From Escherichia coli (GTDB lineage Bacteria; Pseudomonadota; Gammaproteobacteria; Enterobacterales; Enterobacteriaceae), in NCBI RefSeq assembly GCF_003790525.1, contig NZ_CP033635.1: DNA of 64,000 bases, one strand, 5' to 3'. Shown one piece after another: positions 41,083-45,687 of this stretch (position 1 is its first letter; each line of letters begins with the position of its first letter). Position numbers and translations under genes: made by a program. The notes below the pieces were generated by a model. That model did no database searches. It was not told the origin of the DNA and was given only the letters and a program-made list of their open reading frames with translations.

Positions 41083-41169
41083 GCCGAGGTGGTGGAATTG
41101 GTAGACACGCTACCTTGAGGTGGTAGTGCCCAATAGGGCTTACGGGTTCAAGTCCCGTCCTCGGTACCA
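41083..41169 (+). tRNA. leuU: tRNA-Leu (anticodon GAG), 87 nt with encoded CCA
   Basis: GCCGAGGTGGTGGAATTGGTAGACACGCTACCTTGAGGTGGTAGTG...GGTTCAAGTCCCGTCCTCGGTACCA; long variable arm, cloverleaf foldable by eye. Confidence 0.93.
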
Positions 41170-43260: not shown

Positions 43261-44619
<1,359 letters not shown>

Positions 44620-44655
44620 TTAATTAACTGATGATGAGCCTGGATTTCCGCTCTC

Positions 44656-44693
44656 ACTGAATTTTTATGCAAAATAAATGAGTTTTCATTTAA
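44656..44693. promoter_or_regulatory. candidate pair of ARG boxes (ArgR operators) upstream of argG
   Basis: actGAATttttATgCAaa and aATGAgttttCATTt resemble the TGAAT-N4-ATTCA ARG-box palindrome, 50 to 90 bp upstream of the argG start. Confidence 0.45.
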
Positions 44694-44829
44694 TCATCTT
44701 TTATCGGAGACAGGAAGAGTTTAGTGTGTTTTTTGTAAAATAATGCGCTTAAGGGAGAGCAGGAGAAGGCAAAAGTATTCAACAAATGAAAGTGAACTGG
44801 ATATTCATTCACGTGATTAGCAATAAACG

Positions 44830-44859
44830 TTGACAAAATGTGGCATGGATCACTATAAT
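44830..44859 (+). promoter_or_regulatory. consensus-perfect sigma70 promoter (TTGACA, 18-nt spacer, TATAAT) upstream of metY
   Basis: cgTTGACAaaatgtggcatggatcacTATAATgcc read directly on the plus strand. Confidence 0.55.
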
Positions 44860-44907
44860 GCCTGCAGATTTTACGTCCCGTCTCGGTACACCAAATCCCA
44901 GCAGTAT

Positions 44908-44936
44908 TTGCATTTTTTACCCAAAACGAGTAGAAT
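44908..44936 (+). promoter_or_regulatory. metY proximal promoter (TTGCAT, 17-nt spacer, TAGAAT)
   Basis: -10 hexamer ends 15 nt before the mature tRNA 5' end. Confidence 0.55.
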
Positions 44937-44951
44937 TTGCCACGTTTCAGG

Positions 44952-45028
<77 letters not shown>

Positions 45029-45150
45029 CTTTCCCTTAGAGTCCTTTTTCAAATATACTGTGAAGACTTCGGCCTTCGTAGTGGGATTTGAAAAAATCCT
45101 TCTGGAAAGTGCTCCAGACCGCAGTTGCGGTTATAGGGTTCAGTTATATA

Positions 45151-45175
45151 AAGCCCCGATTTATCGGGGTTTTTT
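45151..45175 (+). terminator. hairpin plus T-run between metY and rimP (partial terminator/processing site)
   Basis: aagccccga-ttta-tcggggtt followed by TTTTT; a second weaker hairpin plus T7 lies at about 45199..45217. Confidence 0.6.
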
Positions 45176-45234
45176 GTTATCTGACTACAGAATAACTGGG
45201 CTTTAGGCCCTTTTTTTATGTCTTGGGGGTGGGC

Positions 45235-45687
45235 TTGTCCACATTAGAGCAAAAATTAACAGAGATGATTACTGCGCCAGTTGAGGCCCTGGGTTTTGAA
45301 CTGGTTGGCATCGAATTTATTCGCGGTCGCACATCCACACTGCGCATCTATATTGATAGTGAAGATGGCATCAATGTTGATGATTGTGCTGATGTGAGCC
45401 ACCAGGTAAGTGCTGTGCTGGATGTTGAAGATCCCATCACCGTTGCTTATAACCTGGAAGTCTCCTCACCGGGTCTCGATCGCCCACTGTTCACGGCTGA
45501 ACACTACGCCCGTTTCGTCGGAGAAGAGGTGACTCTGGTTCTCCGCATGGCGGTACAAAACCGTCGTAAATGGCAGGGCGTTATCAAAGCGGTAGACGGT
45601 GAAATGATCACAGTTACCGTCGAAGGTAAAGATGAAGTGTTCGCGCTGAGTAATATCCAGAAGGCGAACCTGGTTCCCCACTTTTAA
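45235..45687 (+). CDS. rimP: ribosome maturation factor RimP (probable TTG start)
   Basis: ORF contains (L)[31 protein letters not shown]..., 150 aa; start codon choice uncertain (TTG at 45223/45235 or GTG at 45229). Confidence 0.88.

Follow-up and report, generated by a model that had tools for sequence, protein, structure and literature searches.

The argG-metY intergenic region of Escherichia coli raises a simple question: does the perfect match to the sigma-70 consensus upstream of the initiator tRNA gene metY work as a promoter, and what would it contribute so close to a second promoter just ahead of the tRNA? Here, this question was addressed in a 64-kb stretch of E. coli DNA (the window; 64,000 nucleotides) by sequence analysis, genome comparison, and reference to the literature. 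The distal and proximal elements are P-1 and P0 of the metY-rimP-nusA-infB operon, which are already known, and nothing contradicts this identification. Almost certainly, these two tandem sigma-70 promoters drive metY, with transcription reading into rimP-nusA-infB-rbfA-truB. The promoters, their starts, the perfect-consensus match, the individual strengths, and the cold response have been published; the comparative picture and the strain-level haplotype presented below are only mildly new material.

Tandem promoters between argG and metY

The 651 bases around the promoters were 100% identical to E. coli O157:H7 and were present in 5418 of 5426 complete E. coli genomes. The identical O157:H7 region is annotated argG/tRNA-Met/rimP, which places the promoters in the argG-metY intergenic region, and rimP, nusA, and infB follow metY on the + strand (Table 1). 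The first-pass annotation had the distal promoter pointing away from argG. This was borne out, as argG lies on the - strand and its promoter diverges from P-1. In the promoter tables of Shimada 2014 (PMC3946193), the argG promoter ATGAAA-17-AAAAAT is listed opposite metY TTGACA-18-TATAAT. A tRNA-Leu(GAG) gene was also observed about 3.7 kb upstream (41083-41169, + strand); it is unrelated to the metY promoters.

Table 1. Features of the argG-metY-rimP region in window coordinates
Feature	Position	Strand	Basis and remarks
argG	43261-44604	-	447-aa ORF
ARG box pair, 3 bp apart	44656-44673 and 44677-44694		1 and 3 mismatches to WNTGAATWWWWATTCANW; overlaps the argG promoter
argG promoter ATGAAA-17-AAAAAT	44661-44689	-	Divergent from P-1; hexamers per Shimada 2014 (PMC3946193), located in the window sequence
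Third ARG-like box ACTGGATATTCATTCACG	44796-44813		3 mismatches; -70 to -53 of the P-1 start
P-1 -35 hexamer TTGACA	44830-44835	+	Sequence reading, consensus scan; same as published P-1
P-1 spacer AAATGTGGCATGGATCAC, 18 nt	44836-44853	+	Sequence reading
CRP-like site TGTGGCATGGATCACT	44839-44854	+	2 mismatches to TGTGA-N6-TCACA, sequence level only
P-1 -10 hexamer TATAAT	44854-44859	+	Sequence reading, consensus scan
P-1 discriminator GCCTGC, 5/6 G/C ("stringent box")	44860-44865	+	Sequence reading
P-1 transcription start, A	44866	+	Primer extension in Brandi 2019 (PMC6511841), placed on the window by sequence identity
P0 -35 hexamer TTGCAT	44908-44913	+	Sequence reading
P0 -10 hexamer TAGAAT, 17-nt spacer	44931-44936	+	Sequence reading
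P0 transcription start, G, 8 nt 5' of the tRNA	44944	+	Brandi 2019 (PMC6511841), Supplementary Figure S9, placed by sequence identity
metY, initiator tRNA-fMet, tRNA-Met(CAT)	44952-45028	+	ARAGORN and Rfam agree
P2 -10 TATACT, probable	45054-45059	+	Internal promoter downstream of metY; hexamer assigned here from the published core
rimP leader, RF01770	45117-45217	+	Rfam, 102 bits against a gathering score of 47

Both sequence reading and a consensus scan recovered the distal promoter as first described, with TTGACA and TATAAT 18 nt apart and identity to the sigma-70 consensus at all 12 hexamer positions. It was the single match to TTGACA-N16-18-TATAAT in the 64-kb window when both strands were scanned. 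In dinucleotide-preserving shuffles of the window, the mean was 0.02 perfect-hexamer matches, and at least one match arose in 2 of 100 shuffles. Scaled to a 5-Mb genome, this corresponds to one or two matches expected by chance, so the 12/12 match alone proves nothing; the case for P-1 is carried by its position, its conservation, and published experiments. In addition, the 18-nt spacer exceeds the 17-nt optimum by one, which makes P-1 a perfect-hexamer promoter and not a full consensus promoter.

Brandi 2019 (PMC6511841) stated that P-1 matches the consensus completely. The view that such perfection is rare among natural promoters agrees with the main-text promoter tables of Shimada 2014 (PMC3946193), in which metY is the sole TTGACA-n-TATAAT entry. 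For teaching, metY P-1 is a useful counter-example to the view that perfect hexamers do not occur in natural promoters.

The second promoter, TTGCAT-17-TAGAAT, was found directly before the tRNA as noted at first. The consensus scan places P0 in an alternative register, TTTGCA-18-TAGAAT, at 9/12. Against the usual description of RpoD promoters (hexamers near TTGACA and TATAAT, 16 to 18 nt apart), P-1 scores 12/12 and P0 9/12 with a 17-nt spacer. The arrangement as two tandem promoters stood, and the initially estimated spacing of 70 bp did not: the distance is 77 to 78 bp from hexamer to hexamer and 78 bp from start to start.

As reported previously, the operon promoters were named P-1, P0, and P2, and their starts were mapped by primer extension (Brandi 2019, PMC6511841). 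The discovery of P-1 is credited there to Granston, Thompson & Friedman 1990. Window positions 44827-44870 are the P-1 core ACGTTGACAAAATGTGGCATGGATCACTATAATGCCTGCAGATT printed in the Figure 5 legend of Brandi 2019, where the "+1 Adenine" follows GCCTGC, a 6-nt stretch with 5/6 G/C; the P0 start is the G after TTGCCAC (Supplementary Figure S9). Placed on the window, the published starts lie 7 nt after TATAAT for P-1 and 8 nt after TAGAAT for P0. A start 6 to 8 nt beyond 44859 had been predicted for the distal promoter, and the published primer extension places it at 44866. No usable genome-wide table of transcription starts that mentions metY was found in the literature.

The separate promoter-reporter fusions that the first-pass annotation had proposed already exist as cat fusions (Brandi 2019, PMC6511841). 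In these multicopy plasmid fusions, P-1 alone gave "fairly high" cat mRNA and was called "a very strong promoter," whereas P0 and P2 alone were "quantitatively marginal" at 37°C. The expectation of a strong pair of promoters is only partly borne out. P-1 was also the most cold-inducible promoter of the operon, at approximately 4-fold. The fragment carrying P-1, P0, and P2 showed low activity at 37°C, with cat mRNA much below that of P-1 alone, and approximately 8-fold cold induction, and competition between P-1 and P0 for polymerase was proposed (Brandi 2019, PMC6511841). "TTGACA-18-TATAAT metY" appears in genomic SELEX among the promoters bound by RpoD holoenzyme alone, as tabulated in Shimada 2014 (PMC3946193).

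Conservation within E. coli and across genera

For the 61-mer at 44815-44875, three main haplotypes were found in E. coli, all with both hexamers intact. The window-type haplotype, with A at 44845 and no difference from the window, matched 1392 genomes exactly; the K-12 type (G at 44845) matched 3370, and the ST131 type (G at 44845, C at 44863) matched 548. Summed over the three haplotypes, the P-1 hexamers are intact in at least 5310 of 5426 complete genomes. Few base differences separate K-12 from the window in the argG-metY region. Midway along the P-1 spacer, and inside the CRP-like site, position 44845 is A in the window and MRE600 (about 1392 genomes carry A) and G in K-12 and most other genomes, a difference speculated to affect cold induction (Brandi 2019, PMC6511841). 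The discriminator has either T or C at 44863, and the C of ST131-type strains gives GCCCGC, with 6/6 G/C. The third ARG-like box varies between G and A at 44813; the window carries G, as in MRE600. Directly after the P0 -35 hexamer, position 44914 is T in the window, K-12, ST131, Ecol_276, and ATCC 8739; of the six sequences compared, the MRE600 sequence as published is alone in having C there. The window mixes the MRE600-type A at 44845 with the K-12-type T at 44914. The published experiments were performed in K-12 and MRE600, and with this mixture of haplotypes the quantitative behavior in the window's strain could differ slightly.

To look beyond E. coli, species-representative genomes were scanned with a DNA pattern consisting of the tRNA-fMet 5' end, a gap of 383 to 413 nt, and the argG FSGGLDT motif; the scan covers species in which the tRNA and argG are as far apart as in E. 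coli, give or take 15 nt. The 35 loci recovered came from Citrobacter, Kluyvera, Salmonella arizonae and diarizonae, Enterobacter, Trabulsiella, Phytobacter, Pluralibacter, Entomohabitans, and Escherichia whittamii. One false positive (L009) and two divergent loci (L011 and L031) were left out, and the remaining 32 enterobacterial loci and the window gave 33 sequences.

In all 33 sequences, the P-1 -35 hexamer was TTGACA and the spacer was 18 nt long. The -10 hexamer was TATAAT in 10 and TATACT in 23; judged from these sequences, the perfect 12/12 form characterizes Escherichia and is shared with a few other lineages. Spacers of 25 different sequences occurred (mean majority fraction, 0.59), and variation was greater still in the 40 nt that precede the -35 hexamer (0.50), compared with 0.93 for the first 20 transcribed bases. 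The two discriminator positions nearest +1 had a majority fraction of 0.91. Within the otherwise free spacer, the TCA at 44850-44852 (-16 to -14 of P-1) was kept in 97 to 100% of the 33 sequences, even in genera in which the CRP-like site lacks its left half; this TCA differs from the TG extended -10 motif. P0 was also retained, as TTGC(A/G)(T/C/A)-17-TA(G/A)AAT: its -35 hexamer in other genera was TTGCAT, TTGCGT, TTGCAC, or TTGCAA, and its -10 hexamer TAGAAT or TAAAAT. Given this conservation of P-1 and P0, the tandem architecture is ancestral to much of the Enterobacteriaceae and is under selection.

L011 (Escherichia sp. ESNIH1) and L031 (Enterobacteriaceae UBA7338) represent a divergent lineage in which argG and metY are arranged in the same way. 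Here, the distal promoter is TTGCAA-18-TATAAT and the proximal one has TAGTAT as its -10 hexamer; the intervening leader shows no sequence relationship. Thus, the conserved P-1 leader is not universal.

Candidate control sites and the transcribed leader

A CRP-like site, TGTGGCATGGATCACT, is centered at approximately -19.5 of the P-1 start and is confined to the P-1 spacer plus the opening base of the -10 hexamer. It was the best match in the argG-metY intergenic region. Kluyvera has a better match, TGTGA-N6-TCACT, at the same place, and the left half of the site is absent in Salmonella and most Citrobacter. Across the whole window, 166 CRP-like sites with up to 3 mismatches were counted versus 221 in shuffles, showing no enrichment; the site in the spacer therefore draws on its position and the literature, not on statistics. 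Krin 2003 reportedly described inhibition of metY by CRP. A CRP dimer at the predicted spacer site would exclude polymerase, which fits such inhibition. Furthermore, metY-argG is among the divergent promoter pairs with a single CRP site in Shimada 2011 (PMC3105977).

ARG boxes were also identified. The first-pass annotation had placed an ARG-box region about 140 bp upstream of the distal promoter, and the right edge of the pair at the argG promoter is indeed 136 bp from the P-1 -35 hexamer. Matches with up to 3 mismatches were few, with only 7 in the whole window (+ strand scan). The third ARG-like box, which the first-pass annotation did not mention, sits 17 bp ahead of the P-1 -35 hexamer, apart from the canonical pair; Salmonella and Citrobacter retain an ATTCAT core at this place. 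Like the CRP-like site, this box is a consensus match only. For ppGpp, P-1 has the G+C-rich discriminator of stringently controlled promoters (GCCTGC, 5/6 G+C), and Brandi 2019 (PMC6511841) deduced ppGpp sensitivity of P-1 from its cold induction and this discriminator.

The 86-nt P-1 leader (44866-44951, GATTTTACGTCCCGTC..CCAAATCCCAGCAGTATTTGCA..) was nearly invariant across enterobacterial genera (loci L005-L039). Its conservation begins sharply at the P-1 start, with drift in the spacer and in the sequence upstream of the -35 hexamer. This sharp onset could reflect upstream elements of P0 or a role in RNA processing. In a scan of 44600-45300 in E-value mode, the leader matched no Rfam family; only the tRNA and RF01770 were above threshold. 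In MFE and centroid folds of 44866-45180, the leader was mostly unpaired, and it was too invariant across genera for a covariation test. A leader-trailer helix forming an rRNA-like processing stalk around metY was considered, with CAAATCCCA (44892-44900) complementary to TGGGATTTG after the tRNA. It was rejected as unsupported, since the TGGGATTTG segment was engaged in a long local hairpin after the tRNA in both folds.

Several observations concern metY itself and the sequence that follows it. The metY gene in the window has G at tRNA position 46 (44998; GAAGGTCG), the tRNA1-fMet form, as do ST131, Ecol_276, and ATCC 8739. K-12 MG1655 has A at this position (GAAGATCG), the minor tRNA2-fMet; the same difference between K-12 and B-strain metY was noted by Brandi 2019 (PMC6511841). 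The published P2 core ACTTTCCCTTAGAGTCCTTTTTCAAATATACTGTGAAGACTT (Brandi 2019, PMC6511841) corresponds to 45028-45069. It is included in a long imperfect hairpin (45026-45111, CUUUCC...GGAAAG) predicted right after the tRNA by MFE and centroid folding alike; this hairpin is probably the site between metY and rimP at which processing by RNase III has been published. Farther downstream, terminator-like hairpins at 45150-45173 and 45198-45210 lie inside the rimP leader, ahead of rimP, and are probably t1 and t2 of Brandi 2019 (PMC6511841). The apparent start of rimP is a TTG or GTG codon near 45223-45235.

Role of P-1 and comparison with known promoters

Transcripts from P-1 start at A 44866 and carry the 86-nt leader before the tRNA, and those from P0 start at G 44944, 8 nt before it. 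By itself, P-1 binds RNA polymerase very well and acts as a very strong promoter. Within the operon, its output is held down, and several mechanisms may contribute. The closely spaced P0 may compete with P-1 for polymerase, as the published reporter data suggest, and the 18-nt spacer, together with the proximity of P0, may limit productive initiation. The G+C-rich GCCTGC discriminator should make P-1 sensitive to ppGpp, and such sensitivity would explain why P-1 shows the strongest cold induction among the operon promoters. Finally, the CRP-like site in the spacer and the ARG-like box upstream may modulate P-1, which would fit the published coupling of this region to CRP and ArgR with the divergent argG.

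This mechanism has to be weighed against two other readings. The more radical one treats the 12/12 match as a chance occurrence or as a non-promoter element, kept, for example, as a transcription factor site, with metY transcribed from P0 alone. The chance expectation of one or two such matches per genome leaves room for it, and P0 was the first promoter described for the operon, judging by reference titles. However, primer extension detects a start where one would be expected, cat is strongly transcribed from that start when the fragment is tested in isolation, RpoD holoenzyme selects metY TTGACA-18-TATAAT in vitro (PMC3946193), and the hexamers and spacer length are conserved across genera where the flanking DNA drifts. 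Published primer extension and single-promoter fusions have already refuted this reading, and its probability is practically nil.

A second reading accepts P-1 as real and assigns it a chiefly regulatory role in the chromosome: as a tight-binding promoter with a non-optimal spacer, it would hold polymerase and gate P0, becoming productive when ppGpp falls (cold shock, nutritional upshift) or CRP is absent. The drop of the three-promoter fragment far below P-1 alone at 37°C and the competition proposed on that basis (Brandi 2019, PMC6511841) speak for such gating, as do the G+C-rich discriminator and the CRP-like site inside the spacer. So does the invariance of the 18-nt spacer alongside a perfect -35 hexamer, as selection for maximal output would be expected to yield 17 nt. 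On the other hand, promoter activities were additive after cold shock (Brandi 2019, PMC6511841), a poor fit to simple occlusion; rapid tRNA processing confounds the primer-extension signals of both promoters (same source); and no chromosomal single-promoter knockouts are reported in the literature examined. We regard a chiefly regulatory P-1 as possible but tentative, and prefer the reading in which P-1 and P0 both drive metY.

The fixed -35 hexamer, 18-nt spacer, and TCA, the near-perfect -10 hexamer, and the near-invariant leader could mean either a gate or a function of the leader. In its broadest form, the proposal would be that P-1 is tuned not as a maximal promoter but as a tight-binding, conditionally productive polymerase gate for the initiator-tRNA/IF2 operon, or that the 86-nt leader has an undescribed RNA-level or P0-regulatory function; we consider this improbable. 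The comparison shows an ancient promoter architecture that is under selection in Enterobacteriaceae, with a drifting spacer and a frozen leader. This conserved architecture could guide work on how growth, cold, carbon (CRP), and arginine (ArgR) signals act on the supply of initiator tRNA and IF2.

Compared with known systems, the nearest is E. coli metY-nusA-infB P-1/P0 (Granston 1990; Ishii et al. 1984; Brandi 2019), which is the same locus as that in the window. All four hexamers, both spacer lengths, and both starts are identical, and the P-1 core agrees base for base with that published for MRE600; only strain-level polymorphisms (44845, 44914, 44813, and metY G46) differ.

The tandem P1/P2 promoters of rrnB type resemble metY in having two close sigma-70 promoters before a stable-RNA gene, and the upstream rrn promoter shares with P-1 a GC-rich discriminator tied to ppGpp and growth-rate control. 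However, rrn P1 relies on an UP element and Fis, its hexamers are imperfect, and its spacer is 16 nt long. Unlike rrn P1, P-1 has perfect hexamers, an 18-nt spacer, and 40 upstream nt that are unconserved across genera, and its reported regulators are CRP and ArgR. With synthetic TTGACA-17-TATAAT promoters, P-1 has the perfect hexamers in common, but it differs from these full-consensus promoters in its 18-nt spacer, in TCA rather than a TG extended -10 motif, and in its G+C-rich discriminator. Each of the three would be expected to lower the output of P-1 or make it conditional.
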